Shown piece by piece: positions 16,875 to 62,507 of a stretch of DNA of 64,000 nt (the stretch's first letter is position 1; every line of letters begins with the position of its first letter). The notes beneath the pieces are model-generated. The model was given only the letters and a program-made list of their open reading frames with translations. It did not search any database and was not told the origin of the DNA. The DNA is from Amphiscolops sp. MND2022 (taxonomy: Eukaryota): contig OZ076415.1 of the NCBI GenBank assembly GCA_964187785.1, positions 66,526,001-66,590,000 of the forward strand, read 5' to 3'. Made by a program: the position numbers and the translations under genes.

Positions 16875-17062
16875 GATTTCTGCTTGTTTTTGACACTCGG
16901 TGGGGAGTTCATTTAGTGTTTAGTCGGCGGTATCTATGCGCGCCGGAGGCGCTCTAGTTTTTATACTCATGATACAATTTGGTCTTTGATTGTCTTCGAG
17001 GATTGGATCTGAGGATACCAAGGAATTTCTCCGGGTGGCTCTTCTTGGGTGTTGTCTTTCCG

Positions 17063-29724: not shown

Positions 29725-29907
29725 TTTGTCTGAGTCCCTTTGAGTTTGATATTATCTTCGGAATTAAATAACGTGGTTGATCGAGTCACGTCATCCATCG
29801 GTGAAGATGTTGAGGCCTGGTAGATCGCATTTTGTATTGCCACAGATAGAATTCTTTGTATTTTATCTTACTTTGTCGTGTGTATTATCGTGGAAGTTGT
29901 ATCTTCA

Positions 29908-42034: not shown

Positions 42035-42035
42035 G

Positions 42036-44225
42036 TGTAAAGGTTCGTGTGGGTTTAGGAAAATTAGTTTTCTGCGATTCTTAGTCAGTTGAGCTTAGGA
42101 GTTAGCTTGCGACTATGCCTTCCTAAACCTTTACAAAAGTTGTCTCTAGGTCTTCCGAGTTCGCAGGAAGGACTTTGTTTCGAGAGAAGAGTTTAATTTT
42201 ATAAAAAGAATTTGAATTAGGTTGAGTATTATATTCAACAATGTTCGTTTTTACACAATACGCAAGAATATAATACAAACAGAATAATATAAGCATCCAA
42301 ATTGACACAAGTATCCAATCAATAATATCTGGATTGTTTAACATTCACCAAAATAAATACGTTAATGTATTAATATAGCAATATTCAGGTAAGTTGTTAG
42401 AGTACTGTAAAAGCTGGAACTTTGGAGTCCTATAACGTCCAACAATTTGTTAGGACGAAGAGTATTGGATTTTTTGATCTGTTCAGACCTTTTTCATGTC
42501 TTAGTATTCTCAACAAGAATGTGAGATTAGTTAAGTCTGTTGACAAAGGTATGACAGGTTTGTCAAAGGCTCTAGCTTATAAGAAGCTGAAGAGTTTAAA
42601 TTGTGAAGTTTTAACTTATATAACCAGCAATAGCTAGGTCGAAGACAAGATTGTATAACGTCAAGACTTTGAAGAAGTCTTGTAACTCTGGGTAAAGCAA
42701 AATCTTATTAACCAGCGTTTAGCTAGGTTTTGTGTTTGGACAGGCTTGCCAATGGCTGCTTGAACATAAGGTTCAGTGCAGTGTTTTAAGAGTTTAGCCT
42801 ATTGCAATGGACTAGCAGGTTTGCTAAGTCGAAAAAGAGACAAGGTTGTCTAACGTCAAGACTTTGAAGAAGTCTTGTAAGTCTAAGTGAGGTAAGGGTC
42901 TTATTAACCAGCGTTTAGCTAGGTTTTGTGTTTGGACAGGCTTGCCAATGGCTGCTTGAACATAAGGTTCAGTGCAGTGTTTTAAGAGTTTAACTTATGT
43001 TGTGACTAGCAGTGGCTAAGTCAAAAGGAGACAAGATTGTCTAACGTCAAGTCTTTGAAGAAGTCTTGCGAGTCTAATTTAAGTAAAGGTCTTATTCAAC
43101 CGCGTATAGCTAAGTTGTTTTTTTGTACAGAATTGTCAGGGAACTCGAACTTAAGGTCCGACTAAAGTAAATTGAAAGATTATATGCATTTTAGGTTTTA
43201 ATTTTAATTTAAGTTAAGATAAAAATTAACTTTAACTAGCATTTGCTAAGTCTTGACGCGATAGCGTACTTTAGAGAAAAAATAAGTCTCAATCAAGAAT
43301 CTGGTTTATTTGGAGCGTTTAGCTCAAAATATAAATCCCTATGATTGCATAGGAGAACCTTGTTGGTTAACTTTTTGTTCAGTCGAATGACTGTAAATTT
43401 GTTGTCACGAAGACAAGAATAAAGCAAAAAGGAAGAAATTTTGATTGTGAATTTTGTTGTTAATTTCTTAGTTAAAGAAAATAACTTACCTGAAAAGCGA
43501 AGTGAGTGGAGGTTTGGAGATTTGTTTGTTTTTTGAGAGGAGGAGAGTGACGGATTTGATTTTGTTTGAGAGGTGAAAGACTATGAGAAGCGTATGATCG
43601 TCTTTAGAAATGTTGGCCCTTTTATACAAATCAAAAGGCACGTGCAACCAATCGCATTGATCGGTGCATTTTATTGGATACGAATAAATAACGTCACATT
43701 CTCGGTCCTTGTTCGGGATTAACCTCGGGACCAGGCATGGCCGAGTACAAGTCGGCAAGAATTGCATCAGCTAGTCATTTAACTCGGCTAGCCGAGTTGG
43801 CTGATGCAATTTTTGTTTATGTCAGGGGAAATAGACTCTTAAGTGGGGACTTTTGGTCTCGCTTGAATAATCTTTTGTTCTCAAATTGAGAAGCTCCGGC
43901 CGCACAAGTGGCGCCTATTGTTCTCTTCTCAGAGATATTTGCTCGCACAAGTGGCGTCGCATATTGTCTTTTTCAAAAGAATAAAAGAGAATTATTTGCA
44001 CAAGTGGCAAGCGTCTTTTTTGTAAAGGGGAATTTGTTCTTTCAAGTGACGCGCAGTTGTGAATTTGTTCACTTCTAAAATTCTTTCAAGCGTGCCTTGA
44101 AAATTGAAAGAATGCGAAAAATGAGTTACGGAAAATGAATAATTTTATTCTAGCTCCGATGAAAGATTCTTAGATAAATGTTTTAGGAATATTAAACTGA
44201 AGAAAAAGATGTGTTGAACACAACA
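42036..44225 (-). repeat. 3' LTR of element C (2190 bp, with ~2.5 internal ~193-bp tandem units at ~42640-43130)
   Basis: Direct repeat of 59269-61463, roughly 25-30 differences by eye (~99%). Confidence 0.97.
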
Positions 44226-44248
44226 ACTCACCCGGGGTTTTATAATGA

Positions 44249-45001
44249 TTAAGTTGAAAGGGGGGGATACAGGGTGTTTATGACTTTTACTTCGAAGAAT
44301 ATGGAATCGTTTTTCAGCCAAGGGTTTTCGGAATTCATTAGTTCATCAAGAGGGATGAAACACAAGATGGTGACGGCTGTGTTGCTAGATGTAGGTATGA
44401 GTTTCTTGAAGCACTCACTGTTGTTGTTGTTTGTCACAATCAGCTGCTTGTAAGGCTTGGATATGTTTCCCTGGCCGAGCAGGTGGATCTCAATGACGCC
44501 TTGAAAAGGCCAAATGAGGATCTCGTCATAGGGCCCGGGACACATAGCCAAGCACACTGACATGTATTTTCCTTTAGCAGTGTGGATCCCAAAGGGGTAG
44601 GCTCGAAGATGGAAAGTGTAGCCAAAGGGTTGCGAGAAGAAAATAGGGCTGCAAAGATCTTTTAGGCTGTTAGGATCACAATAGGGTGCTCTTACATGAG
44701 ACAAACTCTTTTCGTATTTATCCGCATTTTTTAGAATATCGGTAAACTGATCGAGTCTCCAAATGACTCTGTATAAGTTCCAATCCCGGGGAATTGACTT
44801 TTTTTCTATACGTAGAATACGCATTTCCAGTGCATCAAGTCTTTTGTTTACCTCGTGTGTGCGGTCCGAATCTTTTGATTCATCGGTGTAAGGGGTGATG
44901 TTTACTTTTTGTCGCAGTAGAAGTAACTCGTTAATTAGGGAGTCTGTCAGGGATCGTTCGTCTTCTAGTTGTTCAATGATGGTGGATAAGCTTGAATTCA
45001 T
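44249..45001 (-). CDS. TRAF-like protein (coiled coil + MATH/TRAF-C domain, no RING or zinc fingers), 250 aa
   Basis: VIWRLDQF, SPIFFSQPFGYTFHLRAYPFG, YMSVCLAMCPGPYDEILIWPFQG, CFIPLDEL, WLKNDSIFFEVKV match the TRAF-C strand motifs; intact, intronless. Confidence 0.92.
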   Translation of the reverse strand: MNSSLSTIIEQLEDERSLTDSLINELLLLRQKVNITPYTDESKDSDRTHEVNKRLDALEMRILRIEKKSIPRDWNLYRVIWRLDQFTDILKNADKYEKSLSHVRAPYCDPNSLKDLCSPIFFSQPFGYTFHLRAYPFGIHTAKGKYMSVCLAMCPGPYDEILIWPFQGVIEIHLLGQGNISKPYKQLIVTNNNNSECFKKLIPTSSNTAVTILCFIPLDELMNSENPWLKNDSIFFEVKVINTLYPPLST

Positions 45002-47711
45002 CTTGAGTTATAGTTCTGAAAGAGAATACAAAATCACTTTTAAAAAATGCTGAAGTGCCTCTAAGGGGCACTACTATTCGTTGATAGCCTAGAATGGGAT
45101 TTTCTAGTGTAAATTCTTGGCGGTTTGGATCCCAGAAGACAATATGCCACTGGTTACATTCTCGTTTCAAAAGATAATTTAAATCGAGTTGAAATCGGGG
45201 ATTTCTGGTGAAGGAATATCTGTTGGCAGCCTCTTCAATCTTTCGTTGTCGGCGTAGTGATTCTTGAACACCAAAAGTAGTCTTTTGCTTTTTATGAGAT
45301 TGTTTGATGGGTGATGGATGAGGTCGCTTGGACGGTAAGGGAGTTGTTTTCAGGCTGTTTGGTGGAGGAGGCGGTGCTGTTTTGACAGTGCCTTCAGCTA
45401 TTGTCTCAGTTGGGAGGAAGTCAAAATCTGATGGAGAAAGCAGAGGAAGATCGATCAAGTCGGCGTTGTCGGGTTTTGGTTCACTGGTTAGCGACTCTAT
45501 TTCTTCTGCAATTGATTTTTCGTTTTGCATGTTCTGGGTACTAAACACAAAAACATGAAAGTACAGTTTTACTGGTGAGACCGTATGGATGGTTGATGTG
45601 GGGGGTCTTGTTATGGCAGGATAAATATGCTCAAGAGTCTCGTGCTCATTGTAGTTTTTGTCGGGTGGAGTACTTGAGGTCATTGGGTCATGTTGGGGAA
45701 TCTGATTTAGCGTTGATATCATTGATACTGTAAACAAATTGTAGGTTGCTGAGAGGAGTATTTTACCGATACCCCAAGAAGCTCCTGTTACTCGGTGTAG
45801 TTCAAATGAGCGAAATGTTATGACGATTACATTAACCAAAAACTTGATAAGAAGAAATCCTCCAAACCATTGTCCCAGTTTGCTAAACCAGTATTCAATG
45901 ATACCAAAGGTGCTAATGAACTGCTCTTTGAAGTATCCTGGCGATATCATGTTGTCCACGTAGAAGTCTGTACGTGGTGCATAATAACCAAACTCGTCGG
46001 GGCCTTTGTTGGAGGCTGAAGGTATGATGAGTTCCCGTGAAAATTTTTGTAAAGCTTTTCTGGATGCTGCGCTAATCAAAATATTGTCCCAAAAATCACT
46101 GAGCTGTCCTTTTGTATACATTCCAGCATCCTGAGATTCATCGAAAGTATCCTTGGTAAAGGGAGAAATTTCTTTTGGGCCAAAGATGGCAGGTCTGTCT
46201 CGATGTGTGGGTTCTGGGTTTAACGAAAACCAGGAGTCCTTGTCTTGCATGTCCAGTTGATAAAGATTTTTGATTCTGTCCGTGCAGTTTTGAGTATTTG
46301 CATTAGGATAAGTTTGTCGGGTGATGGGATCTACGAATTGGATTTGTCCTTTGTAAAAGATGGGTGTTTTGTCATAACAATTACTAATAACATGAAGGGG
46401 TGATGATATTAAAGGACAGGAGTAGAGCCAAGCAAGACTGCCATCAGTTTCAAGGAACATAGATCTGTTTCCAGTTAGCATATATCCTGCAAGGCGTGGA
46501 TTTTCCAAAGAGAGCATCAATATAGTGAGTACTTGGGTCCTTTCTTGCTCACATTGGTTTTTCAACATTTGAATCTCAGACGATTGAAGCGCTCGAGTGC
46601 TTTCGAAAAATAGGTAGTCCAATTTTGTACCAACTTGCATTTCGTAGTCCATATGGAGCCAAGTATTTACATACTTGTCTTTAACTGTGGCGTCTCTGTT
46701 GTATATGTAAAGTCCAGGTTTCCCAGAGTTGTCTGTGGAGTATTGGAGGGTATAGAATCCTCTTGTAATTCCCATTTTTCTTCCAGAGGCCATGTCAAAT
46801 CCACCAGTATGTATTACAATGTACATGGACTCGTAATTGGTTGGGTAAACATCATTCGGTTTATTACAGAATTTCTGGGGGTAGTTTTTCACTTCGAACA
46901 AGAATTTGGAAGTGGAGGCGTTAGTACTCACCATGTGATATCGATGTTCATTTTTAATCATGTTCACTTGTTCTTCCTTCAAAACCGACAATACGCAATT
47001 ATCTGGGTGATCCCATATATAAGCATAAGGATCTAAGGATGTGCTTTGGCAACCCAAATCATCGAGTTTACATGGAAGGGGATTCCCATTTACATTATGT
47101 ACTGTTCCGTCTCTCAGTTTAACTGGTAGAGTCACCTCTTGGATGTGGCTTTCAAAAGTGTCTTTGGTCATCCAAGACCTTCCATTGCAATGGTTCCTAT
47201 TTTCCTCGCTTTTCTTCCCATTAGTATAGGATTGAACAAGTTTTGTCGCTTTTTTGAACTGGACCATGTGGTCGAGTATTTGTATTTTTCCTTCTTCCCG
47301 TGCCCTTCTGCATTGTTCTTTGCTCAGGTCGATATCGCTTGTGATTGTGTTTTGTTCGGCGTCAATACTTGCATGGTCATGATATCCATAGTGCCACTTG
47401 AATCTACTGTGCTTTAGACGGCACATAGTGGCGTTGAGTTCTGTTCGGAAGTGCTTTGTGTAGACAGTGATTATAGCTGGGTTGATTTCAATGTTTTCTG
47501 GGGAAACGTGGCAGGGTCTCACTTGATTTAGTGCATACAATTTGTTTTCAGTCATCTCTCCACAATCATAATGTGACACACTGAGTCTCTGTGCAATGTC
47601 GTCCAGATTGGGGTTCGGAAGGCCATTGATGAGGGCGTAGCACGTAATGAGCATTACAAAGAACTTACTGCACATTTTGGATCTAATGGGGGGAATCTTA
47701 GGCATTGCCAA
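44973..47711 (-). CDS. env: Envelope glycoprotein, chuvirus-G/herpes-gB-like (class III), read through into a ~185-aa downstream segment
   Basis: Signal peptide after M47675; HYDC..LNQVRPC; QCEQER..ENPRLAGYMLTG..DGSLAWLYSC..CYDKTPI..VDPITR..C Cys pattern; TM segment WFGGFLLIKFLVNVIVITF. Confidence 0.85.
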   Translation of the reverse strand: MAMPKIPPIRSKMCSKFFVMLITCYALINGLPNPNLDDIAQRLSVSHYDCGEMTENKLYALNQVRPCHVSPENIEINPAIITVYTKHFRTELNATMCRLKHSRFKWHYGYHDHASIDAEQNTITSDIDLSKEQCRRAREEGKIQILDHMVQFKKATKLVQSYTNGKKSEENRNHCNGRSWMTKDTFESHIQEVTLPVKLRDGTVHNVNGNPLPCKLDDLGCQSTSLDPYAYIWDHPDNCVLSVLKEEQVNMIKNEHRYHMVSTNASTSKFLFEVKNYPQKFCNKPNDVYPTNYESMYIVIHTGGFDMASGRKMGITRGFYTLQYSTDNSGKPGLYIYNRDATVKDKYVNTWLHMDYEMQVGTKLDYLFFESTRALQSSEIQMLKNQCEQERTQVLTILMLSLENPRLAGYMLTGNRSMFLETDGSLAWLYSCPLISSPLHVISNCYDKTPIFYKGQIQFVDPITRQTYPNANTQNCTDRIKNLYQLDMQDKDSWFSLNPEPTHRDRPAIFGPKEISPFTKDTFDESQDAGMYTKGQLSDFWDNILISAASRKALQKFSRELIIPSASNKGPDEFGYYAPRTDFYVDNMISPGYFKEQFISTFGIIEYWFSKLGQWFGGFLLIKFLVNVIVITFRSFELHRVTGASWGIGKILLSATYNLFTVSMISTLNQIPQHDPMTSSTPPDKNYNEHETLEHIYPAITRPPTSTIHTVSPVKLYFHVFVFSTQNMQNEKSIAEEIESLTSEPKPDNADLIDLPLLSPSDFDFLPTETIAEGTVKTAPPPPPNSLKTTPLPSKRPHPSPIKQSHKKQKTTFGVQESLRRQRKIEEAANRYSFTRNPRFQLDLNYLLKRECNQWHIVFWDPNRQEFTLENPILGYQRIVVPLRGTSAFFKSDFVFSFRTITQDEFKLIHHH

Positions 47712-47759
47712 AACTTCTTTTTGTGAAGGGCAAAATGTTAAGAGTGGTTTACGAGAGGA

Positions 47760-48100
47760 GAATTAAACGGTAGCTTGCTAACCGAGAGTTGGTGGAGTCG
47801 AATTTGACAATCCAGTTGAAATCAAGGTTGATTTGACTGATGAAGACTGCTTTTCAGAATGACTGAAAGTGGACAAAATTTGTCTATTGTCTTCAACCAA
47901 ACCAAAATTTGGATATAAATTTGGTAGTTTGCTAACCAGAAGTCGAAGGAGTCTAACTGACTACCCGATGCGAATCAGAATTGATTCAGACGTGATGATG
48001 TTTTCAAGAACTGAAATGAGAAAAATGTTGTCTAATGACTTCAACTAAAGCGAAAGTGAATAAACGTTTGGTAGCTTGCTAACCAAAGGAGGGTGTAGTC
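47760..48100. repeat. Three imperfect ~150-bp direct repeats upstream of env
   Basis: Core ggtagyttgctaacc at ~47769, ~47924 and ~48069. Confidence 0.6.
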
Positions 48101-48310
48101 AAAGTGACCACTTCTGTAGTTTTGAGATTGGTGCACGAGTCTATAAATTGAGTTTCAGTATCTGGCTCGATTGATAGCCGTTTTATAAGCATTGAAAGTA
48201 CACTCTGTTATCAGAAGTGAAGTTATGGGCTTTGGATTTGAAAATGGGATAGTGAGGTGGGATTATAAGAATTTATTCAACACAAAATACAAGGTTCTAG
48301 TTTATGAAAT

Positions 48311-48978
48311 TTACAAATCATAAAATTTAATAAGATCCGTGTACAACTGGTTATATTTAGGAGAGGTGACGCATTCGATATCCATAACACTGGTTAATTC
48401 TCCCAGCACATCTAAATCAAATTTGGTGATGTGTCTTTCGGGTTTGTGTTCATACGAAATGAGGGAAGCGGCTAGTGATGCATATAGGAAAGTGTTCTTG
48501 TAGATTTGTCTCTGGTACTTTTTGTCGGGCAAGTCGTAACGCTCAAAATGGATGCAAATTTTGAATCCGTAGGTCCAAGTCCACCGAACATAGGTAATCA
48601 AAAACTTTTTGTTGTTTTCACTAACGAAAATTGTCCAGGGGCAATTGAAACTGCGTTCTTCGCATTTCTTCTCCCAAAGGGTGTCCCAGTAGATAGTAGG
48701 AAAATGATAGCTTTGTGTAATTCTCGATTTTGCTCTGTTGCGCGAGTCTTTTTTGAGAATAGACTGTGGGTTCATTAGAGTCAAACAAATCTGTAGGTAT
48801 GTCTCCCACAAATGTCATAAGATGTAGAAAATAGTTCCAGTAGACTGATTGTCGATCTACAAAAACAATGTCCCTTTTTGAAGTGATGTGGTGTTTTAGG
48901 TAGATATAAATTCTATCTTGGTCCAGCTCAGTTTTATAGATCCTGTAGAATGCGTTTTCAATTTTGATGTAAGTCATA
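48311..48978 (-). pseudogene. Element C accessory ORF (~220 aa, aromatic-rich, one frameshift), unknown
   Basis: Overlapping ORFs 48621-49013 and 48311-48811 join near 48710. Confidence 0.55.
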
Positions 48979-48996
48979 CGATGAACTGAAATAATC

Positions 48997-49482
48997 AAAA
49001 GTTTTTTACCCACGGCAGAGATTGATAACTGAGATCGTTACCGTGCTGAAAAGTTTTTTACCCACGGCAGAGATTGATACTGTGATCGTTACCGTGCTGA
49101 AAAGTTTTTTTACCCACGGCAGAGATTGATACTGTGATCGTTACCGTGCTGAAAAGTTTTTTACCCACGGCAGAGGTTGATACTGTGATCGTTACCGTGC
49201 TGAAAAGTTTTTTACCCACGGCAGAGATTGATACTGTGATCGTTACCGTGCTGAAAAGTTTTTTACCCACGGCAGAGATTGATACTGTGATCGTTACCGT
49301 GCTCGACTTTTTGAAAGGTTTTTTACCCACGGCAGAGATTGATACTGTGATCGTTACCGTGCTCGAATTTGAAAAGTTATTTACCCACGGCAGAGATCGA
49401 TAACTAAGATCGTTACCGTGCTTGATTTTTTGAAAGGTTATTTACCCACGGCAGAGATTGATAACTAAGATCGTTACCGTGC
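48997..49482. repeat. Tandem array, 9 copies of a 51-60 bp hairpin-forming unit
   Basis: Unit aaaagttttttacccacggcagagattgatactgtgatcgttaccgtgctg; CACGG/CCGTG and GAT/ATC inverted pairs. Confidence 0.95.
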
Positions 49483-49584
49483 TAAGCTGAAATGAATGAT
49501 TATATATGAGCTATTAGTTTAAGTTAAGATGACAGCGAAGAGAAGGGAAAAGGATTGGGTAAGAAGAAGACTTTTATGTACAAT

Positions 49585-50106
49585 TTAAAAGTCGTCCATT
49601 TCTTGCCAAAGCATCACGGTTTCTAATATGTCTATATACATATCTTTATAGTTCGAGCTCCGGCAGGTAGCATCCATTTGGTCTGTTATGGCGCTCAAGG
49701 CATCAGTATCCTGTTTAGACAGTTGCGGTTCTGGTTTCCTTTTGTAAGTGACTAGAGCTGCTGTCAGAGACATGTAGAGAAATGATCCCGGTTTTAACCA
49801 TTTATGGTACGCTTGCTTTGACCTGTAGTTGTGGAATCGAATTTCCACATCTGCTGCTGGATGCCAGCTCCAGTTAAACTCTTGTACAATCATGGAAGTC
49901 TCTTCGACTTCGGGCATCACATTCCATGTGCAATTGAAATTGATTTTATTGATAACGATGATTGGAATGTCATGAAAGACGGGCTTCATCTCTGGTTGAA
50001 TTTGGCTGAAAGTTGACTGAAAAGAAAGACAATGTTCGAAAATGCTCCTTGGCTTATTTTGTAAAATTTGAACAAGTTTTACGGTTGCAAGAGCTTGACT
50101 TTGCAA
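49585..50106 (-). CDS. Element C accessory ORF, 173 aa, unknown (start uncertain)
   Basis: Open frame with protein-like composition between pol and env. Confidence 0.5.
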   Translation of the reverse strand: MQSQALATVKLVQILQNKPRSIFEHCLSFQSTFSQIQPEMKPVFHDIPIIVINKINFNCTWNVMPEVEETSMIVQEFNWSWHPAADVEIRFHNYRSKQAYHKWLKPGSFLYMSLTAALVTYKRKPEPQLSKQDTDALSAITDQMDATCRSSNYKDMYIDILETVMLWQEMDDF

Positions 50107-50872
50107 AAGACAAAATTTTATACTTTTGTGTTTTTGTTCTTTTCACAAGGTTCTCCTTTAGCAGGGCTTTGTCTTATTTCTTTTGTTCTCCTACTACTTT
50201 TGTTTTCTTTTGTAGTCTTTGTAATGTGATTTTTGTGTTCTTTTGTTTTCTGCATGCTTTTGTTATTACATGCAGTGACTTCTTTTATTAATTTCTTCTA
50301 ATTGTTGACTCCTCTTTTCCGTTTTCTTTGGTTTGCATCATTGGCTTTCATCTGTTCTTTTTATTAAAAACGCGCTTTTGTTGTTGAAGAACTGTGGGTG
50401 CCATGTGTGTTTTTGAAGTTTGCTTTGTAGTGAATGCGCTTTTGTCATGGTTTAGTTCTTTTGGTTGCCATGTGGTTTCAAGTGGTTTGAAAAATTGTTT
50501 GTTCACAATGTGCTTTTGTAATGGTTCAGTTCTTTGGACGCCATGTGTGTTTTTGAAGTGGTAGCTTAAGTTTGACTTGTGTTGAGTGCGCTCTCGGATG
50601 TTAGTCTGATCTCTTCAAATTCACAAGTAAGTTCGTTTTCGGTTTTCGTTTTTCTTGAATTTTTGTTATCGTGTATATGACACGCTCGACCGCCGAAAAA
50701 GGAATAGAAAAGTTGTAAGCATATAGTGGTAAAAATTGGGAGAAAAATGAAAAACGGTGTTGAGCAGCAAAGTGTGAGAGGAGGAAATTTTTAAATGGTA
50801 TAAGGGGGGGTGGTGAAAATGAAATTTGAGATTGCAAGTTAGTTGTTGTTATTTAGACTTTTTCTTTGCACG

Positions 50873-51466
50873 ATGAACCGCTTGCCCTTTTCTACCGCAA
50901 ATGACGCGTATTTGGCGCCAGATCTTTTTGCTGACATGCGAGCGTTGGTAACTGACCTGGAGCTTCCGATGATGGCGGGAACAACACCGGAAAGTGAAGT
51001 TCTGCGGCGCCCAGAACCACTTCGGAGAGCAGTGAGGTTGGCGTTAGGAGAACACGTAAGTTATTGAGTAGGGTGGCTTCTAAGCACTATAGGGGAGGTT
51101 TTTTTTGTATTGTTTTTGTCACGGATATAAGAAGGGAACAAAGTTGTCGTTCTGAAAGTTGATTGTACGTGTTTCGTAATTGTGATTTCCAATCGTGATA
51201 GTTTGTTTTAGTGGAGAAAGAAGCTATCGCACGGAGCCAAAGATGTGTGGACTTTTAAACTTAAGGCGATAGTGCAAGGTTGGGAGAAGACTTCTCCACA
51301 AGACCGGGCCAATATAGCTCGACGGTTGGACAGGAGCCAATTCTTCGAGGTCCTCCAAGAGCTAGCCTTAGCAGGAGGGTACATGGTGTGTTTGTGCGCT
51401 GGACACCCTAAGCCACCTCCTAATGGGGCAACCGTTGTCCCCTTTGAAAGGGAAGACTTATTATAA
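50873..51466 (+). CDS. Two-exon antisense gene inside element C (145 aa, unknown)
   Basis: Exon 50873-51055 (ATG, 61 codons); donor GTAAGT; 156-nt intron ending tttgttttag; exon 51212-51466 in phase 0, open to the stop. Confidence 0.7.
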
Positions 51467-51658
51467 ACTTGTATAAATTGTAAATATTTTGTTTTTGTTA
51501 TTTTAATATTTTAATTTTATTTTGTAATACTTTTGTTTTAAATTTAAGTTTTTAAGTTGTAGGGTGAAAAGTAAGAGAACGGTTTTTGACGGTTAAAAAT
51601 TCGAAAAGTTTAGCTGGAGGAGAAGGATTAGCTAAAACTTTGAGCAATCGCCTCTGTG

Positions 51659-51855
51659 GAGGCTTGTTGATTAAAACATCAACAGTCACAGTGCTATCTA
51701 TTCCAGGCAGTTCGACCATTTAAGGCGAACCGCCATAGCACATTTTTTCTTTGTGGTTTTTGTCTCTTGGGAAGACTTGTTGAAGAAAACCGTCAACAGT
51801 CACAGTGGTATCTATTCCAGGCAGTTCAACCATTTAAGGTGAACCGCCATACCAC
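51659..51855 (-). ncRNA. Duplicated cis-acting RNA stem-loop (2 copies, 114-bp period) downstream of pol
   Basis: Stems GTGSTAT/ATASCAC and GGCGGTTCR/YGAACTGCC with two compensatory substitutions between the copies. Confidence 0.6.
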
Positions 51856-52255
51856 GAATTTTTCTCTAATACATGGAGAAGTGATCCAATTAAAGATTTT
51901 TGGTAAAAATCTCGTGCTTGAGTGAGGGGTTCCAAAAAGGTATACCAGTGAAGTGTAGGCTATTGCCAATTTTCTCGTAAAAAAATTGTGGTTGCTGTAT
52001 CCAATGGGTCACTAGGCAGCCACTTTGTTTGTGACTACGTAAGAAAAAAATTGAAGTTTTTTTTTGAAAAATGTTTCAGGAGTGTGTTCGGAGGCTTCCT
52101 GGTGAGTCTCATGACACGGTGAAGTGTGTGTAGTTCCGGATTGTCTAAGTATATAATTGTGAAGAAGAAAAGGTAAATCGGGATTTTGGCGGAACGGAAG
52201 TGTTAGAGATGTGAAAAGATTTTATTATTATTATTATTATTTTTTAATTGAAATT

Positions 52256-55200
52256 TTAATCTTTATAACCTTTTCTCTCAATGTCTCGGAGGGAACTACC
52301 AGGGGTGCTTCGTTCGTATTTAGGATTTTTGGGTTTTTCGGAAAACCGTGTAGTTACTTTTTTCTTGAAGTTAGATAACTTTCCTGTTTTTGGGGAAATT
52401 TGATCGGGGGGAGACATTGTATGGATAGGAGGTACGGACGGGAGAACCGGTGTTCTTTTAGGTAGGGGAGTATTGGAAGAGAAAGCGAGTGGCAATACTG
52501 CCAAGGGAAGGCGTGGTGTTTGCATCGGTGGAAGTGGATTTGTTCCACAGCTTTGATAGGAACGTTCCCTCGGAACGGTGTTGTTAGACGTAGATGGTAT
52601 TGGGGTGTGAAATTGTGGGGTTTTCGGAGAGAGGAATCCAGAATCGGTACTGGGGGAAAATTCAGAACTTTTTGTAATGTTGTTGTTCGGCCCAGAAAGG
52701 GGGGTTATGATGAGTGGCATAAAATCTAGTTTGTGCTCAGATTGTCCTGAATTGTGTTTGTCAATTTGACTCTGGATCAAGTGCTTGTAAAAGTTATCAT
52801 CTTGTTCTATGGGAGCGTAATTTGTTAGCAATGGGGGCAAGGTCTCCTCTTTGGGGAAATATTCTAGTAAGTGGTTTCGATGAGTGGTTTTTACGTTCTC
52901 GGGGTTTTCATCTTCTTTTATCTCGTATGTGGTGTTGGTTATTTGTCTTGTCACCGTGAAAGGTCCTACTCGTAATTGTTTCAATTTCTGTGATTTGAAT
53001 AGGTCGGGTTTATGATTCTCTAGGAGAACCTTTTGACCGACTTCGAGCGGTCGTCCCAGTTTGAAACGGTTCCGATACTCATGAGCCTTTGATGTGATTT
53101 CTCTACATCTTTTGTAGGTGGATGAGTAGATGGACTTGAATTCGTTTTCTCTTGTAAGTAGCTCGGAAGATAACTGTGGTTTAAGGAGTCGATCAAGGGA
53201 CTTGTTTCGGAGGTTATTTTCACTGTGGGTGTGAGGTTGTAAATCCGCACAAAACTCCGATTTGCATAGTTTGTTTTTGTCGCGAATAAGTCCGAGTTTC
53301 AGCGTCATGGGTATTTGTGGTTTAACGCCAAAAACAATTTCGTAAGGAGTCAAACCCCGTTGTGTAGTTTACGCTCGTATTATGGGCAAAGGCAAATTTA
53401 GATGCAAGTGTTGACCAATTGTTTCCTGACTCGTTGGTGAAGTTCCTCCAGTATCTCATGAGATGTTTGTTCTGGACTTCCACTTTGCCGTTCGTCCAAG
53501 GCGAGTATGCAGTGCGCGGTGCCAACGTTATCCCAAATTCTTTTGTCCAATTTCAAAATCACGGTTGATGAAAGCTGAGCCATTATCGTGGACGATTTTT
53601 TGAGGGATGCCGTAGGATGTAATCCATTTTTCTAGTGCATTGATTGTAGTCTGAGCTCCTGTATCTCGAACAGGATAGACTCCGAGAAATCTTGAAAATG
53701 CATCTACTACAACTAGACAATGTGTGTTCAAGTTACTGCTTGGTCTAATAGGTCCTTTGTGGTCGATATGAATTGTTTTGAAGGGGGTTGTTTCGAGTTC
53801 GCCCCACTGCTTAAGAGGCGCTTCTTGTAAGTCGTGTCGCTTAGACTTGTTAGTCTGGCATTGTAAACAATCCTCTATTAGAGATACTATCCATTTATAT
53901 CGTCCAGGCCAAAAAAAATTCTGTCTGATGTTTTCGAATGTTTTGAATATGCCTGGATGGCCGCTGTGAGTGTGAGCATGAGCTAGGTTGAAGAGGGGTA
54001 GGAATAAGGATAAGGGGACACAGATTTTCATCTCGTATTTGTCTGTTCCATGAACGGGTTCATTATAGCAGAGTAGATTGGTTTCTTTATCGAGAAAAAG
54101 TTGGTTAAAATTATTGAAATACGATAGTAAGGCCCTCGATTGTTGTATTTCGGGTGTTTTGGTGGTTGGCTTGTTTTGGTTTCTAACCCAGGATCGTACT
54201 ACTTGTAATACGGGGTCCTTAATTTGTTCTGCGACTAGAGTAGGGATATCCAGATCAGCGACCTTAGAATAATCACTCAGTTTTTGTAGGAGATCTTTAG
54301 TGTCAACGTGTGGGAACTGCTCCACGTCTGAACTTTTATTTAATAGTGGTCTTCCAACCTTTTGTAGAATGTTCTTTTCCTTTGCCGTTGATTTATCACG
54401 GTAGAACTCGTGATCTCCGCTGGAAAGGTGGAGTTCGGCGACATCTTCTTCGTCATCACTAGAGTCTGTTTCAATTTCGTCTATTCTACTATATTCGGGT
54501 TCGCACTGCATTTTGTATGGGGGAAGACAGAGGTTTTTGTATTGGTTGATTGACTTCCCCAATTTAAAACAATCGGCGATGTCTTGTCGAGTCGTCATTA
54601 CTGTTTGTTGGTTCTCGTAGTGTTCTACTTCATGTTCCTCTCCATCGTACTTGAGATGGAGTAGTCTTTGATCTTTGCCCGTTTGACAAAGGATAGGAAA
54701 AAAGTCATTGGTTCCACACTGACCGTCGTCATTGTGCTCGATTGTATAATGTATTTTCGATCCGAATTCGTCAAAGAAACTGATATCTCGCGGTATTTCT
54801 TTGTGGAGTTTCTGCAAATTTTTCCTTTCCTCCAATGTGACGTTCCGACTGAGTATATCTGGAAACGCGAGATTAGATCCTTTAGTCCAGATGATTTTGA
54901 GGTTTTGGAACTTGGTAATTATTACCTGGTATTTGAAAAAGCGGTGTGAGAGTTGTCCTTTCCGCCCCCAAAGGTATAGGATGGGTTTGTGATCGCAATA
55001 GAGGTATATTGGGAATGGAGATCCAATAATGTAGTGTTCGTATGTTTGAAGTGCTGATACTATACCACACAATTCACGGTGAAGGGTGGACATTTTTTGT
55101 TCAGCCTTGTCAAATACGCGCGAATTGAAAGAAACTATCCTTTTGCCTTCTGGAAACTGTTGCACTAAAATACAACCGGTACCAACATTCGAAGAATCGA

Positions 55201-56536
55201 CATGTATGTGGAAGGGGTACTCAGTTGAAGGGACAGCAAGAATAGTGTCTTCACATATACGGCTTTTTATATCAGTGAAGAGGTCTTCGTGTTCTTTTGT
55301 CCATTTGAAAGGTGTTGTAGATTTGATCAAGTCGTAGAAGGGTTGACTGTCCACATGTAAGTTCTTTATATAGCAACTATAAAACCCAAGACAGCCAAGT
55401 ACTTTCATCACATCCCTTTTACTTTCGGGTGATTTTAGGTTTTTGAGATCTTGTACTCGTTTTGCTAAGGGCTGTATTCCTTGTTCAGAAATAACATGAC
55501 CCAGGAATTTGACTTTTCTAATGAAGAAGTTTGTCTTCTCAGGTGCAGCTTTAAGTCCGGCTTTTCTCAGGAGTTGATGGTACTCGTGAATTATTGTGAA
55601 CATTTCTTGTTTTGTTTGAGCCTGCATTAGGCTGTCATCAAGGTAGGTGATAGCTTGTTTTCGTTTAATAAGGGGCTCAAAGTGTATAGCCATTAAACGA
55701 CTAAAAAAGTTTGGAAGTCCACAGAGTCCGTAAAAACCACGTATATACGTATACTGTTTTCCGCCGGTGATGAAACTAGTGAGCTTTTGGGTCTCGTCGC
55801 TCAATGGTACTTGGTGATATGCGCAAGATAAATCGCTGACTGTGAAGTACTTTCCATTGATTCGAGTCATGATCATCTGTATGGGTTCCAATGGCCACGA
55901 GTAATTTGTTAAATCTGTTATAGAATTCAAGTAGCGGGCATCGATTACTAGTTTTACGTAGTCTGCTTTGGGCATTAGAATGATCGGATTGACAAAAAGG
56001 GAACCTAATTCGTCATCGTCTCCCATTTCTCTAATGATATCAGCTTCTTGGAGTTGTCCAAGTAGCTTCTCAAGTTTGTCTTTCAAGTGAAGGGGTACTT
56101 TGCTCGGTCGTTGTTTTTTGAGTTCCGAATTTGCTTTGAGGGTTACATGAAATTTTTGACGTACTTTTCCCACGTCGAATTTGTGTTGTGAATACACGTC
56201 TGCTGCGTCAATAAGCATATCTATTAGGACAACCAATTCTTCATCTTGGAGGTCAGTATATCGGAAATCGAATTTTTTCACATATTCCTTGGTTTCTTCA
56301 CGCTGATATTGGAGGTAGTTTTCTATCAAAGCGTCGTTATCTTCTTTTGTTCTAAGTTCAACAAATTGTTCTGTACAGGGTGGCTGACAAGATTTAGCGT
56401 CCTTAGCAAAATCTGTTTCAAGTTCTTCAGTGCCATTAGCAAATTTTTCCATATAATAGTCAATATCTCCCTCTTCTACTTCTTCTTTTCGTATGGAAGC
56501 ATTAACAAATTGAAGGTTTGCTTCTTTTTGTGACAC
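52256..56536 (-). CDS. pol: Element C pol: RT, RNase H, integrase (frameshifts at ~53530 and ~53350), long Pro/Ser tail
   Basis: VKLVIDARYLN, TYLDD, HVDSSNVG..FPDILSR, HAHTHSGH..CLQC, IDHKG..HDNG..GKVEVQN, VGPFTV. Confidence 0.96.
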
Positions 56537-57720
56537 AATCTCAACTTTAATATGTCCATAATCGAACGTGTTACGAATGATGTCTAACGCTTCTTTCCAG
56601 CTGATGTTGTCTAAGCCATCTTCATTTTTGGCTACTGAAATTGCAGATATATTGTTTAGTTGTGCGTGTCCGAACAGATTTTCAATGCAACTACGAAAAT
56701 CTTCGGGTCTAATTTTTTCGTAACACCTTTTTTTGCAACTAGCCCATAGATGAAGCGATTGGCTTCGTTATCCCAAAAGGGTAGAGCCGATCCAACGAAG
56801 GGTTTTGATTGGTTTACGAAATTTTGGAAATCTTTTTTCTGTTCACATAACTTTTTCGCAAATGTGGTTGTCATTTTTCCGTCTGCCGAGACACAAAAAG
56901 CTAAGTTTGCATTTGATGTCCGCAGAGTCTCGCCAGAGCCGTGGCTTAGAAAGACTTGTTGATCTCCTTCGTGCTCGAAGGGAACTGTTGAGTGTAGTAA
57001 GAAACAATCATTGTATTCTGGGTTTTCCTTCAATATTGTGTTGACCATCGTGACACAATCTTTTACCTGGAACTTCGGTCGTTCCCTTTCCTGTAGATCT
57101 ATGGTAGAATGACCAATTATCCCTCTATTAAGGGTTATTTGGTGATTTCGATTATTTTCAATCAAGATTGGCAGATGGGGTTCGGATTTCGTACATAAAA
57201 CATTCACAAAGGTAAGCCCTGTTTTGACTGCATTTTTGTGGGGTGTGAATGATGTTCCGGGTGCAAAATGTCTATTGTTCTCGCGAGAGTATTTATGTAG
57301 ACGGGTGGTTTTGGCATCGATACAAATTGGGTTGTCTGTTCGTACTGTTTCGACTTTTGAAACGTAAGGGAAAGGTTTGGTAGCACAAAGGTTACCGTTG
57401 CAAATTGTGTTAGGACTATCTTTCAATTCGATTGCGGGCAAATCAAAATGTAATTTAGAAACAAGTTGACGGCAGAAATCTATTCCCAGTAAATTGGGTG
57501 TCTTCGCTTCTGTTATCCAAAACTTTAGTTCTACGGGATGGAATCCATCCGAGTCGAAGCTAAATGTGATTGTTGTTGATCCGAGCATCGGTATAATTTC
57601 ACCAGTATAGGTTTTAGTCAGTTGCTTGCTTCTAACTACCGTGATGGGTTGTCCAAATTGTGCAATTTCCTCAAAAGCTCTATAATTGATAATCGAGCAG
57701 GCTGCTCCAGTGTCTAACAT
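56535..57720 (-). CDS. pol: Element C protease + dUTPase-like spacer + TARG1/OARD1-like macrodomain (56535-56960, 1-nt frameshift in the T7 run at ~56728-56734)
   Basis: MLDTGA; LPILIENNRNHQITLNRG spacer; LAFCVSADGKM..KPFVGSAL..FIYGLVAKK|RCYEKI..ISAISVAKNEDGLDNISW..IKVEIV. Confidence 0.85.
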
Positions 57721-57831
57721 AAATGCTATTTCTAACCCACTATCTTTTTTGGAGTCTCCGGTGGGAAAAAAAGAAGAGATTTAGGTGAAATCGTGATTTG
57801 AGGTTACTTTCTTAGTCAGGTCGCGGAGACT

Positions 57832-59226
57832 TTAACAGTTTAAAGGGTTGAATGAGATTGTACTGACTCTGTCCTGTCCTTCTTCGTCAACGAACTGTAC
57901 GGAGTTTGGGAAACTGTTATTGTTGGTTGGGAAATTCCTATTGTACTCGGAATTTGTGTTTTGTGGTCGGGCACTGAAGTTATACGGGCTATTTGGCCTA
58001 TTTCCAGTATAGGGAGTATTGTTTCGCAAATTAGTATTAGTAGGAGTCGGCCTACTACCTGAAGAGTGATTGTTGTTGCTATTGAAATTGTTGAAGTTGT
58101 TCGGCTGTTGAGGGTTATTTCGGTTCCAGTTATCATTTCGGTTGTTTCCCTCGTTAGGTCTGCCTCTATTGAAGTTTTGGTTAGACTGTTGGTTATTCCT
58201 CTGATTATTAGTGAAGTTCGGTCTTGATGAGGGCTGATAATTTTGTTGTGACCCAAATCCGGGTCCCTTCCGTTTGTTGTAATCGTTAGTGAAGGTGACC
58301 TTCTTCTCTTCATTAGCTCTTGATTGTGCTCTCTTGGCTTCGTCATCATAGATCTTTTTGCGGCAATATTGGAGTGTATGACCATTTCTTAGACAATATT
58401 TACAAAATCGTGTGATATTTTGGCGGGACGTATTATTTACGTCTACTGCAGAAATGTGGTAGTCGTGACAGTGGGAGGGTGAGCACCCGTAAGATAAAGG
58501 ATTAGCTACAGCTAAAGAACTGAATTGTTGTTCTTTTAGCATATTCTTCATTGCATTTATGTCTTCTCGTAGTTCAATTATCAATGTTTTTTGATTTTGT
58601 GAGGAATTCGGGGCTAACTGCGAGCTGATAGTAAAAACAAGGTCTTTATTAGTTACGTGTTCCTGAAATTGTTCCCAAGTAGCGTTGGGGTGTTCAATTA
58701 AGTATTGGTGAGCCTTGTTCTTGAGTTCGTTTGGCGTTAGTCCTCTGACTGCGAATTCAATATACTTTTGTCTTCTTTGGGCATTCAGTGCAGCTCTGGC
58801 TGCGTTGTCCGCATTTTCTTCATCTGGCCATCCTCTATCGACAGCTCGTTTCACCCGGTAAATGTAGTTCTTTATTATTTCTTCATTTCCTCTGACACTG
58901 TTTTCTGCAGTTATTCTATATCTGTATTTATCTCTATTGTCGGAAAAACGGGTTAGAAAATGTGTTCTGATGTGCTGCCAATCGTGTCCGTCTTCTATGT
59001 TATCTGTGTACCATTCGGCGGCAGGTCCTCTTAGGAGAGATGAAAAAAGTGCCTTTTTTCGGAACAAGTATCTTGCTCGTTCGTCATCATTGTCGGGTTC
59101 ATGGCCCATCGAGAAATTGATTTTATTCTCAACAGTTGTGAGAAATGATCTAACATCTTGTTCAGGATCGTTTCCTGAGAATTTGTCCAACGCGAGGTCT
59201 GGAAATGAGACTGTATTATCCGCCAA
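57832..59226 (-). CDS. gag: Element C gag (TTG start in this copy), CCHC knuckle, N/Q-rich tail, T TTA AAC slippery site
   Basis: LDKFSGNDPEQDVRSFL, LRGPAAEWY, CKYCLRNGHTLQYC. Confidence 0.92.
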   Translation of the reverse strand: MADNTVSFPDLALDKFSGNDPEQDVRSFLTTVENKINFSMGHEPDNDDERARYLFRKKALFSSLLRGPAAEWYTDNIEDGHDWQHIRTHFLTRFSDNRDKYRYRITAENSVRGNEEIIKNYIYRVKRAVDRGWPDEENADNAARAALNAQRRQKYIEFAVRGLTPNELKNKAHQYLIEHPNATWEQFQEHVTNKDLVFTISSQLAPNSSQNQKTLIIELREDINAMKNMLKEQQFSSLAVANPLSYGCSPSHCHDYHISAVDVNNTSRQNITRFCKYCLRNGHTLQYCRKKIYDDEAKRAQSRANEEKKVTFTNDYNKRKGPGFGSQQNYQPSSRPNFTNNQRNNQQSNQNFNRGRPNEGNNRNDNWNRNNPQQPNNFNNFNSNNNHSSGSRPTPTNTNLRNNTPYTGNRPNSPYNFSARPQNTNSEYNRNFPTNNNSFPNSVQFVDEEGQDRVSTISFNPLNC

Positions 59227-59248
59227 TCTTCTCTTTTCCTTGTATGTG

Positions 59249-59265
59249 CCTCACTGGTCGCACCA
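59249..59265 (-). promoter_or_regulatory. Primer-binding site of element C (TGGTGCGACCAGTGAGG)
   Basis: TGG start 3 nt after the 5' LTR; cognate tRNA not identified. Confidence 0.75.
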
Positions 59266-59268
59266 GTT

Positions 59269-61463
59269 TGTAAAGGTTCGTGTGGGTTTAGGAAAATTAG
59301 TTTTCTGCGATTCTTAGTCAGTTGCGCTTAGGAGTTAGCTTGCGACTATGCCTTCCTAAACCTTTACAAAAGTTGTCTCTAGGTCTTCCGAGTTCGCAGG
59401 AAGGACTTTGTTTCGAGAGAAGAGTTTAATTTTATAAAAAGAATTTGAATTAGGTTGAGTATTATATTCAACAATGTTCGTTTTTACACAATACGCAAGA
59501 ATATAATACAAACAGAAGAATATAAGCATCCAAATTGACACAAATATCCAATCAATAATATCTGGATTGTTTAACATTCACCAAAATAAATACGTTAATG
59601 TATTAATATAGCAATATTCAGGTAAGTTGTTAGAGTACTGTAAAAGCTGGAACTTTGGAGTCCTATAACGTCCAACAATTTGTTAGGACGAAGAGTATTG
59701 GATTTTTTGGTCTGTTCAGACCTTTTTCATGTCTTAGTATTCTCAACAAGAATGTGAGATTAGTTAAGTCTGTTGACAAAGGTATGACAGGTTTGTCAAA
59801 GGTTCTAGCTTATAAGAAGCTGAAGAGTTTAAATTGTGAAGTTTTACCTTATATAACCAGCAATAGCTAGGTCGAAGACAAGATTGTCTAACGTCAAGAC
59901 TTTGAAGAAGTCTTGTAAGTCTGGGTAAAGCAAAATCTTATTAACCAGCGTTTAGCTAGGTTTTGTGTTTGGACAGGCTTGCCAATGGCTGCTTGAACGT
60001 AAGGTTCAGTGCAGTGTTTTAAGAGTTTAGCCTATTGCAATGGACTAGCAGGTTTGCTAAGTCGAAAAAGAGACAAGGTTGTCTAACGTCAAGACTTTGA
60101 AGAAGTCTTGTAAGTCTAAGTGAGGTAAGGGTCTTATTAACCAGCGTTTAGCTAGGTTTTGTGTTTGGACAGGCTTGCCAATGGCTGCTTGAACATAATG
60201 TTCAGTGCAGTGTTTTAAGAGTTTAACTTATGTTGTGACTAGCAGTGGCTAAGTCAAAAGGAGACAAGATTGTCTAACGTCAAGACTTTGAAGAAGTCTT
60301 GCGAGTCTAATTTAAGTAAAGGTCTTATTCAACCGCGTATAGCTAAGTTGTTTTTTTTGTACAGAATTGTCAGGGAACTCGAACTTAAGGTCCGACTAAA
60401 GTAAATTAAGAGATTATATGCATTTTAGGTTTTAATTTTAATTTAAGTTAAGATAAAAATTAACTTTAACTAGCATTTGCTAAGTCTTGACGCGATAGCG
60501 TACTTTAGAGAAAAAATAAGTCTCAATCGAGAATCTGGTTTATTTGGAGCGTTTAGCTCAAAATATAAATCCCTATGATTGCATAGGAGAACCTTGTTGG
60601 TTAACTTTTTGTTCAGTCGAATGACTGTAAATTTGTTGTCACGGAGACAAGAATAAAGCAAAAAGGAAGAAAGAAATTTTGATTGTGAATTTTGTTGTTA
60701 ATTTCTTAGTTAAAGAAAATAACTTACCTGAAAAGCGAAGTGAGTGGAGGTTTGGAGATTTGTTTGTTTTTTGAGAGGAGGAGAGTGACGGATTTGATTT
60801 TGTTTGAGAGGTGAAAGACTATGAGAAGCGTATGATCGTCTTTAGAAATGTTGGCCCTTTTATACAAATCAAAAGGCACGTGCAACCAATCGCATTGATC
60901 GGTGCATTTTATTGGATACGAATAAATAACGTCACATTCTCGGTGCTTGTTCGGGATTAACCTCGGGACCAGGCATGGCCGAGTACAAGTCGGCAAGAAT
61001 TGCATCAGCTAGTCATTTAACTCGGCTAGCCGAGTTGGCTGATGCAATTTTTGTTTATGTCAGGGGAATTAGACTCTTAAGTGGGGACTTTTGGTCTCGC
61101 TTGAATAATCTTTTGTTCTCAAATTGAGAAGCTCCGGCCGCACAAGTGGCGCCTATTGTTCTCTTCTCAGAGATATTTGCTCGCACAAGTGGCGTCGCAT
61201 ATTGTCTTTTTCAAAAGAATAAAAGAGAATTATTTGCACAAGTGGCAAGCGTCTTTTTTGTAAAGGGGAATTTGTTCTTTCAAGTGACGCGCAGTTGTGA
61301 ATTTGTTCACTTCTAAAATTCTTTCAAGCGTGCCTTGAAAATTGAAAGAATGCGAAAAATGATTTACGGAAAATGAATAATTTTATTCTAGCTCCGATGA
61401 AATAATCTTAAAGAAATGTTTTAGGAATATTAAACTGAAGAAAAAGATGTGTTGAACACAACA
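59269..61463 (-). repeat. 5' LTR of element C (2195 bp)
   Basis: Direct repeat of 42036-44225. Confidence 0.97.
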
Positions 61464-61465
61464 CA

Positions 61466-62507
61466 TGTCAGAACGGGTCACGTTCGAGTTGTTAATGGTG
61501 TTAAGTCCGTTACATTCACTAGTAGATGATGCGATCTTCTCGGTTAAGGCCATCACAATGCTCGTTAGGTCGCTAATTTGCCTATTCATTTCCATGAAAC
61601 GTTGGTCGACTGAACTCGAGTTAGGATTTTGTCTACTGTTGATAATATCTCCACTATCAAACTCATTCATCTGGTTTCTCGACAAGACTTCCGGAAAGCT
61701 GTTCTCACTTTCGTTATCACTGTTCTGTTCCATTCTACTGGAACTTGCCGCATAACTGTCTACGTGCTGTGATCTCGTATTAACCATGCTCGGTTCTTTA
61801 ATAAGACTTTTGAGTTTTTGAGTTCATTGTTTAAATTGAAGGAGAAGAATTACAAGTTTGTATGTTAACGATGTAAGCAACACTACCTTAGCTGAAGGTA
61901 AATTGTACTGAAGGTATTTCAACACTTGTTACTTTCTGCACAATGCTGGTCACGCGTCTATGTCACGTGACTGTTTTGACCAATGATATTGCTCTATTGA
62001 TTAGGTGTTTATTGGTGCGTCCTGCTGGTCGCAACGCAAATGGTCTTTTGTACGAAATATAGCACCAATATGTTGCTATGGTTACGTGAGTCATCTATCA
62101 TCTTGTTAAACCGATACAACTTTAAAATGATGGCGACCTATCATCATTGCACGTAATTCTTCAGGTTACTGGTAAAACTAAATATGGTGGAAGCACTTGT
62201 ACACTGAGTATAAATATGATGAATGCACTTGTACGTAGAGTATAATGATTAAATGATGCTAACTTTTGTACGTTAACTACACGTTGGGAAAAGAATTGAT
62301 GATGATGGGATAAGCCCGTCATTGTTCAGTAGTAATTCATGGTTATTGAAATATCAGACATATTGCATTTAACTGAGTTGTTTAATGTTTAGAATGTTTT
62401 TTATCAGTTTCATTGTTGTATTCTTTCTGTATCGACCACTGTCTAAACTTGACGTAGTGGTATTGACAACGTTGTCTCTCGATTTAGTTCATGCTTCCGG
62501 CATGACA
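61466..62507 (-). repeat. 5' LTR of element B, containing the gag start codon (61787)
   Basis: Direct repeat of 27882-28923; MVNTRSQ...NVTRSD joins MVTGV at 42034 once element C is removed. Confidence 0.96.

Follow-up and report, generated by a model that had tools for sequence, protein, structure and literature searches.

An env-bearing Ty3/Gypsy element of Amphiscolops sp. with a macrodomain in Pol, a TRAF gene and further conserved accessory genes

When a retroelement carries additional genes beside gag, pol and env, are these genes accidental passengers, cargo retained for the benefit of the host, or tools of the element itself? This question is raised by a 64,000-nucleotide stretch of the genome of Amphiscolops sp. 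MND2022 (assembly GCA_964187785.1, contig OZ076415.1, positions 66,526,001 to 66,590,000; the whole stretch is referred to as the window), where an earlier note, made from the letters alone, had described a retrovirus-like element that combines an envelope (env) gene, a macrodomain embedded in Pol and a captured TRAF gene, and had proposed that the three form a virus-style counter-defence kit. Our preferred reading, which we consider fairly probable when taken jointly with the gene roles proposed below, is that the window holds a damaged member of a Ty3/Gypsy lineage which bears env, is actively spreading and is organised like a complex retrovirus. Judging from their sequences, its accessory genes are probably kept to manipulate the host cell.

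The limits assigned to the element in the earlier note were exact: it is a Ty3/Gypsy element of 19.4 kb on the minus strand at 42036-61463, bounded on both sides by a CATG target-site duplication (TSD), and its long terminal repeats (LTRs), which start with TG and end with CA when read on the element strand, were correctly put at about 99% identity (98.7% by BLAST; 2168 of 2190 aligned positions match, with 22 substitutions). The described layout of gag followed by protease (PR), spacer, macrodomain, reverse transcriptase (RT), RNase H (RH) and integrase (IN) was likewise confirmed, with RT, RNase H and integrase found by Pfam in the window copy itself. Pol has the order PR-RT-RH-IN, as in Ty3/Gypsy (Metaviridae), and the solved RT nearest to its RT-RH region is that of Ty3 (1e-34), ahead of foamy (1e-23) and gamma-type (1e-14) enzymes. 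By Pol order, RT and LTR/TSD/primer site, the element is a member of Ty3/Gypsy (Metaviridae); membership of Retroviridae was rejected, as the RT does not fall in the retroviral clade and Ty3 is nearer. The primer-binding site lies 3 nt from the LTR, and the matching tRNA-Met(CAT) gene is present at four places in the genome. The proteins have approximate lengths of 470 aa (Gag), 1,870 aa (Pol) and 710 aa (Env), in separate frames, and the gag-pol overlap contains a heptamer that we take to be slippery, at which a -1 frameshift may occur. Three small open reading frames (ORFs), ORFa, ORFb and ORFc, and a spliced antisense gene lie between pol and env, and ORFx lies between env and TRAF (Table 1). 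Damage in the window copy comprises an early stop in pol, frameshifts in the macrodomain and ORFb, a break in integrase, and an env that reads on into ORFx.

The window copy is one of many. Weaker and partial matches were left out of the same-genome counts, which are lower bounds; at least 45 TRAF matches of full length and no less than 86% identity were found on 12 contigs, 42 of the 45 being without a stop. Env lies upstream in 42 of these, PR and macrodomain in 40 and both in 37, and the TRAF, env and Pol frames are all open in 19. The copies form subfamily A, at about 97% identity, and subfamily B, at about 87%, and the element family has recently been amplified. A more distant family C, with an env 61% and an RT 88% identical to those of the window's family, has the gene order small ORFs, env, ORFx, TRAF in all ten stretches fetched, and families F and G have env-ORFx-TRAF in three of three stretches, so that two other lineages, both deeply diverged, also have the env-ORFx-TRAF cassette. 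For two large clusters of env sequences in the databases, the best identities in this genome are only 59% and 71%, and the element clade therefore probably extends to other hosts.

Selection was assessed by pairwise counts between natural copies; the pairs have ancestry in common and do not count as independent tests. For subfamily A against subfamily B, the ratio of nonsynonymous to synonymous distance (dN/dS) is 0.05 for TRAF (dS 1.2-1.4, P~1e-50), 0.02 for env as well as RT, 0.11-0.13 for ORFx, 0.12-0.13 for ORFc, 0.14-0.15 for ORFb, and 0.07-0.10 for ORFa where dS is unsaturated. The TRAF of family C gives 0.11-0.19, and the antisense exons lie at 0.03-0.15 when diverged copies are compared. 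As controls we used the ratio of the corresponding proportions (pN/pS), which is 0.42-1.11 in three non-coding stretches and 1.2-2.5 in the off-frames of TRAF, compared with 0.11-0.13 for TRAF in frame. Very close pairs are non-significant, as expected (window versus copy L013: TRAF 0.47, P=0.19; antisense exon 2 1.5, P=1). The earlier note had named absence or neutral decay of the accessory ORFs in other copies as the observation that would count against it; instead, they are present there, and every accessory gene is under purifying selection.

The TRAF protein of the window copy matches the Pfam family TRAF-mep_MATH (1.2e-20), the TRAF-C core of families A/B and C aligns with TRAF1/2/3/5 structures, and Pfam scans of five element TRAFs found no RING or zinc fingers. 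The same genome contains TRAF genes with introns (L030, L041). The part of L030 that corresponds to what the element carries is interrupted by two GT-AG introns (595 and 407 nt), and the element TRAFs run as continuous coding sequence across both positions; an N-terminal motif of the host protein is still present in the TRAF of family C. Identity to L030 over TRAF-C is 48-50% for family C, 39-41% for A/B and 24-25% for F/G. This comparison agrees with the earlier note in that the gene has every appearance of a capture, namely a processed copy of a spliced mRNA from a host TRAF lineage. The tree is star-like (approximately unbiased test, p=0.29 for one element clade) and compatible with a single capture as well as with several. 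The genome also holds a dispersed, multi-copy TRAF group (L032-L036; about 28 matches, 49-58% identity to the host exon) in which the last intron (69-70 nt) is the only one left and which may be a host expansion or the cargo of another mobile element. RING-less TRAFs can act as dominant negatives. Since the element protein keeps the trimerising and receptor-binding part without the ubiquitin-ligase part, it is most likely a decoy, which would damp TRAF-dependent signalling, be it in immunity, stress or cell death, in cells that express the element; we give this specific role an even chance.

The macrodomain in Pol has human TARG1/OARD1 (PDB 4j5q) as its nearest structural relative. The match of the window copy is weak (E=0.014 to TARG1 for the C-terminal half) because the frameshift splits the domain, and copies with an open frame match TARG1 at E=1e-9 in the window's family, 2e-24 in family C and 8e-32 as a profile. 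Lys84 and residue 125, for which catalytic roles in TARG1 are described in the accessible portion of PMC7050489, are both kept in the window's family and in family C; residue 125 is Glu in that text and Asp in the aligned PDB sequence. Both sites are spanned by 55 of 56 related Pol proteins, where the catalytic Lys is found in 53 of the 55, the Asp in 51 and a GCGLD loop in 46. The domain thus shares its catalytic positions with human TARG1/OARD1, and differs in its location within Pol and in its altered glycine-rich loops: the diphosphate loop and the first glycine loop are changed in the window's family, whereas family C has an intact glycine-rich diphosphate loop. Despite these alterations it is still selected (dN/dS 0.06, A versus B). 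Unrelated Gypsy proteins, including one from a sawfly, likewise have TARG1-like domains, at this place in Pol or elsewhere in it. This distribution, over a broad Pol clade and other Gypsy Pols, suggests an older Pol module, and the notion that the macrodomain belongs specifically to an env-TRAF kit is not upheld. Animal RNA viruses use MacroD-type macrodomains; the domain found here is of the TARG1/ALC1 class and not of that viral type. As a side observation, the proteins P0067-P0071, P0073 and P0077 show the TARG1-like class fused to DNA ligase 3-type proteins and, among them, in the replicase of an insect virga-like virus.

Env, as the earlier note had recognised, is present, and is a viral fusion glycoprotein by Pfam (Monjiviricetes_fusion, 6.4e-35 in the window copy). 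This family, PF24664, which is presumably one of class III fusion proteins, was above cut-off in all three env proteins scanned; no env relatives were found among viral contigs. The env frame measures 731 codons from stop to stop in eight of the nine best env matches and 929 in the window copy. In other copies, an env of about 702-712 aa is followed by a separate ORFx of 153-169 aa, and a 910-aa env was rejected as a family feature, being a copy-specific read-through into ORFx. ORFx consists of an acidic, proline-rich, disordered N-terminal half, a basic patch and a conserved C-terminal domain of about 60 aa. Its predicted model (pLDDT 60) gave no fold match (best Z 4.2), and an ETS/HSF-like half-domain, which had been considered, received no support from the fold search. 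ORFx relatives were found on two metagenome contigs, on one of them directly 3' of an env C-terminus; in metagenome contig L046 the order is env-ORFx, and the next ORF matches TRAF only at E 6.7.

The remaining small genes, the antisense gene and the structured repeats of the earlier note are all present, except that the unknown ORFs, given there as two or three, number four on the sense strand (a, b, c and x). ORFa and ORFc are paralogues of each other, three such paralogues exist in family C, and a profile search returned 63 relatives. Of 19 relatives inspected, five (P0093, P0103, P0112, P0128, P0135) are joined to the N-terminal motif of gag, and sister elements therefore seem to place one such ORF (ORF0) before gag. 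The predicted model of ORFa, a confident one (pLDDT 79), had no BFVD match below E 1e-3 and a best VIA Z of 4.8; Atlas matches in the fold searches were set aside as weak leads only. The antisense gene has canonical splice sites in all eight same-family copies examined (GTAAGT as donor, a pyrimidine-rich AG as acceptor), and the homologous antisense gene of family C has its intron at the same place (translations compared by eye). Alleles of the antisense gene and of ORFa (L011-L014 and the window) are separated by saturated synonymous distances next to env and TRAF sequences that are 97% identical, which suggests exchange of modules between copies. The repeat array contains 8-14 units in ten same-family stretches, and its 51-60-bp unit, also present in family C, is nearly identical in A/B and C despite saturated synonymous sites, which singles it out as a cis-element. 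The 51-bp unit folds no better than shuffled sequences (z -1.25), making a DNA site as plausible as an RNA hairpin. The region 50000-50700 has no long ORF and 85% nucleotide identity between subfamilies, and may hold small exons or cis-elements.

By what is known of the family, Gag and Gag-Pol would be produced through -1 frameshifting, tRNA-Met would serve as primer of reverse transcription, subgenomic RNAs would give rise to env and the products of the 3' genes, and env would pass particles from cell to cell, most likely from soma to germline. The macrodomain would be packaged with RT, and most likely would remove ADP-ribose from proteins or from the ends of nucleic acids, or bind it there, while reverse transcription and integration proceed; that of the window's family may only bind it. 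ORFx, ORFa/c, ORFb and the antisense protein are, by a loose argument, probably regulators of transcription or RNA handling that would act through the conserved repeats. A more ambitious version, which we put forward tentatively and hold to be rather unlikely in its entirety, is that of an old, multi-family lineage of invertebrate analogues of complex retroviruses, spreading from cell to cell or from animal to animal by means of a gB-like env and equipped with a full accessory set: a host-derived, dominant-negative TRAF directed against innate or death signalling, an ADP-ribose eraser in the virion, an ORFx transactivator, a family of small proteins whose fold is like none known, and a spliced antisense regulator that works via the conserved repeats.

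Several observations weigh against the reading of a retrovirus-like lineage whose accessory genes manipulate host signalling. Element TRAFs are only 22-50% identical to host TRAFs over TRAF-C and 16-38% identical between families, and with such divergence may no longer bind the receptor partners of the host. In families F and G their N-terminus bears a PAM2-like motif (sub-threshold in both Pfam PAM2 matches, E 0.0055 and 0.1), which suggests RNA-linked rather than receptor-linked work. The macrodomain of the window's family is without the GCG loop motif that most related Pols possess, the env sequence matched no solved structure in the PDB, and the statistics have, in addition to the shared ancestry of the compared pairs, a control region (50000-50700) with pN/pS near 0.5 in some frames (P down to 3e-4), from which it follows that weak departures from 1 are not diagnostic.

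Some of these points lead to the alternative that survives best, and which we regard as possible, if doubtful: TRAF would be a non-immune adaptor (a tether for poly(A) RNA, an aid to particle assembly or trafficking, or a factor in germline or stem-cell survival), and the macrodomain would shield cDNA ends from the ADP-ribosylation of DNA repair. The PAM2-like N-terminus is present in all three F/G stretches and, at the matching place, in metagenome contig L047, TRAF diverges fast between families while env stays 52-61% identical, and TARG1 works on nucleic-acid termini and at DNA damage, as stated in the part of PMC7050489 at hand. Families A/B and C, however, have no PAM2-like motif and keep a TRAF-C core alignable with TRAF1/2/3/5, and the planarian element Burro has independently joined TRAF-C with BIR and BCL2-like domains, which suits control of signalling and death (PMC6431247, in excerpt). 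The PAM2-like TRAF starts themselves (L042:958, L043:915, L044:1019 and L047:669) suggest a fusion that binds poly(A)-binding protein. A second alternative, that host-level selection keeps the accessory genes as domesticated cargo, is improbable: the host's own multi-copy TRAF group with one intron indicates that extra TRAF copies are tolerated or favoured, but the element exists as dozens of dispersed, nearly identical copies with open gag, pol and env, its older copies decay in the ordinary way, and it is between element lineages that the constraint is seen, the pattern to be expected if selection works during replication. That the extra ORFs are neutral cargo of an ordinary env-bearing Gypsy element is most improbable, and already largely refuted by the selection tests and non-coding controls, for although dN/dS between close copies is sometimes indistinguishable from 1, as expected for decay after insertion, it is 0.02-0.19 at dS 0.3-1.5 between lineages, and splice sites and intron position are conserved across families, with retention in three deep lineages.

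How does the element preferred here, an env-bearing Ty3/Gypsy with retained accessory genes, compare with known systems? Complex retroviruses have accessory and antisense genes, e.g. HBZ of HTLV-1, and the small regulatory ORFs and spliced antisense gene are alike by analogy only, no sequence relationship having been found. Ty3/gypsy elements with a gB-type env ('ancient errantivirus') are widespread in animals and feature an RNase H plus 'mini' domain bridge (PMC13524379, as far as its accessible text extends). Another characteristic of this group is an env that forms a gB-like trimer of five domains with fusion loops. They share with the present element the order gag-pol-env, a Ty3-like RT, a tRNA primer site, a viral fusion glycoprotein in a separate env ORF, and many intact recent copies (19 of 45 here), to which the window element adds six genes, the Pol macrodomain and LTRs of 2.2 kb; the main text of that paper, within the portion available, does not contain 'macro', 'TRAF' or 'accessory', and the four checked of ten occurrences of 'macro' in its supplements are species names. 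The giant planarian Gypsy element Burro/GYPSM1 has env homology together with MATH_TRAF_C, BIR and BCL2-like domains, the MATH_TRAF_C being a separate accessory ORF in one species, and its authors suggest interference with apoptosis and ubiquitin systems (PMC6431247, from the sections seen). Both are Gypsy elements with env, MATH_TRAF_C and an extra domain between PR and RT, which in Burro is dUTPase-like and in the window element a conserved spacer; a 23-sequence profile of this spacer, considered as a possible dUTPase relic, found no dUTPase in PDB or Pfam. Burro exceeds 30 kb and encodes a polyprotein of about 4,900 aa including BIR, BCL2-like and ankyrin domains and an F-like env, as given in the same sections of PMC6431247, whereas the window element has a separate env ORF of another Pfam family, TRAF 3' of env, and a macrodomain; no BIR, BCL2-like or ankyrin domain was found in it. 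By the features tested, the element is neither a Burro nor a retrovirus, and it would function in the manner of an errantivirus with env. Epsilon-like endogenous retroviruses of fish carry macro domain or CNPase ORFs (PMC4977317, in part), a likeness in macrodomain only, as these belong to Retroviridae and the RT here is closest to Ty3. Bdelloid rotifer LTR elements similarly capture extra functional ORFs (ORF3 genes for a GDSL esterase or a DEDDy exonuclease), with no mention of TRAF or macro in the accessible text of PMC5408684. No description of the combination was found in the literature (Repbase, Dfam, GyDB and most subscription journals lay outside the search), and the available parts of PMC4695847 and PMC6109357 hold no precedent. 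The earlier note's remark that it knew of no described family with this combination is consequently sustained for the full set but not for env plus TRAF-C in a Gypsy element, which is already on record in planarians (PMC6431247, as seen in part); the parts have precedents, and their combination appears to be new.

Table 1. Features of the element and its target site, in window coordinates
Feature	Position	Strand	Remarks
TSD, left copy, 4 bp (CATG)	42032..42035
3' LTR, 2190 bp	42036..44225	-	holds 93-aa ORF, 43486-43767
TRAF	44249..45001	-	short coiled-coil-like segment and TRAF-C; intron-less
ORFx, ~163 aa	45040..45530 (approximate)	-	after env
env, ~712 aa, viral fusion glycoprotein (PF24664)	45570..47705	-	Pfam
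Three ~150-bp spaced repeats	47769..48103	-	upstream of env
ORFc, 154 aa	48311..48775	-	paralogue of ORFa
ORFb	48621..48977	-	72 aa in other copies; frameshifted to 118 aa in window copy
Array of nine 51-60-bp units	48997..49483	-	short inverted arms
ORFa, 134 aa	49585..49989	-	paralogue of ORFc
Antisense gene, coding exon 1, 61 codons	50873..51055	+
Antisense gene, coding exon 2, 84 codons	51212..51466	+	no Pfam match
Duplicated stem-loop pair	51673..51862	-	folding z -5.7, element strand; no Rfam match
RT, RNase H, integrase, integrase C-terminal tail	52256..56452	-	two frames in window copy
TARG1/OARD1-class macrodomain	56520..56960 (approximate)	-	frameshift-split in window copy
Aspartic protease, then conserved ~146-aa spacer	56960..57780	-	spacer dN/dS 0.02
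gag open frame	57832..59250	-	Retrotrans_gag, sub-threshold Pfam match
Presumed slippery heptamer, gag-pol overlap	57838..57844	-	in 5/5 copies examined
Primer-binding site, 18 nt	59248..59265	-	complementary to host tRNA-Met(CAT) 3' end, CCA added
5' LTR, 2195 bp	59269..61463	-	internal ~196-bp tandem repeats at 59876-60364
TSD, right copy, 4 bp (CATG)	61464..61467

Among the minor features, a conserved N-terminal motif of gag (59200-59250) lies upstream of the first ATG in the gag frame, and a non-AUG or spliced start is possible. No polypurine tract was seen in the 40 nt before the 3' LTR (44226-44265; window copy only), next to which the LTR opens with a short palindrome, and Rfam gave no match at E<=1 across the whole element. 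The 93-aa ORF in the LTR was rejected as a gene, with pN/pS 0.9-1.06 and frameshifts in most copies. The element is nested, its insertion splitting the gag of an outer Gypsy element (29000-42035 and 61464-62250) that has an open pol frame of 1162 codons and two long ORFs (31116-32027 and 33071-33865) without Pfam match; compared with the inner element, the outer one gave no macro, env or TRAF match. A third retroelement at 9300-20700 shows a zinc knuckle of gag, fragments of RT and five ORFs (278-399 codons) that match nothing in Pfam, and an assembly gap of 200 N is located at 3796-3995.

Accessory genes directed at host signalling are a hallmark of the complex retroviruses of vertebrates, and here six accessory genes are found in a Ty3/Gypsy lineage, selected across families whose synonymous sites are saturated. 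The source lineage of TRAF and the introns that it lost are visible in the same genome, and the element lineage supplies three protein families without known relatives. As the second TRAF in an env-bearing Gypsy element, after that of Burro, it suggests that TRAF-dependent signalling restricts such elements in invertebrates, and the element allows direct tests of whether hosts of this kind use ADP-ribosylation and TRAF pathways against retroelements.

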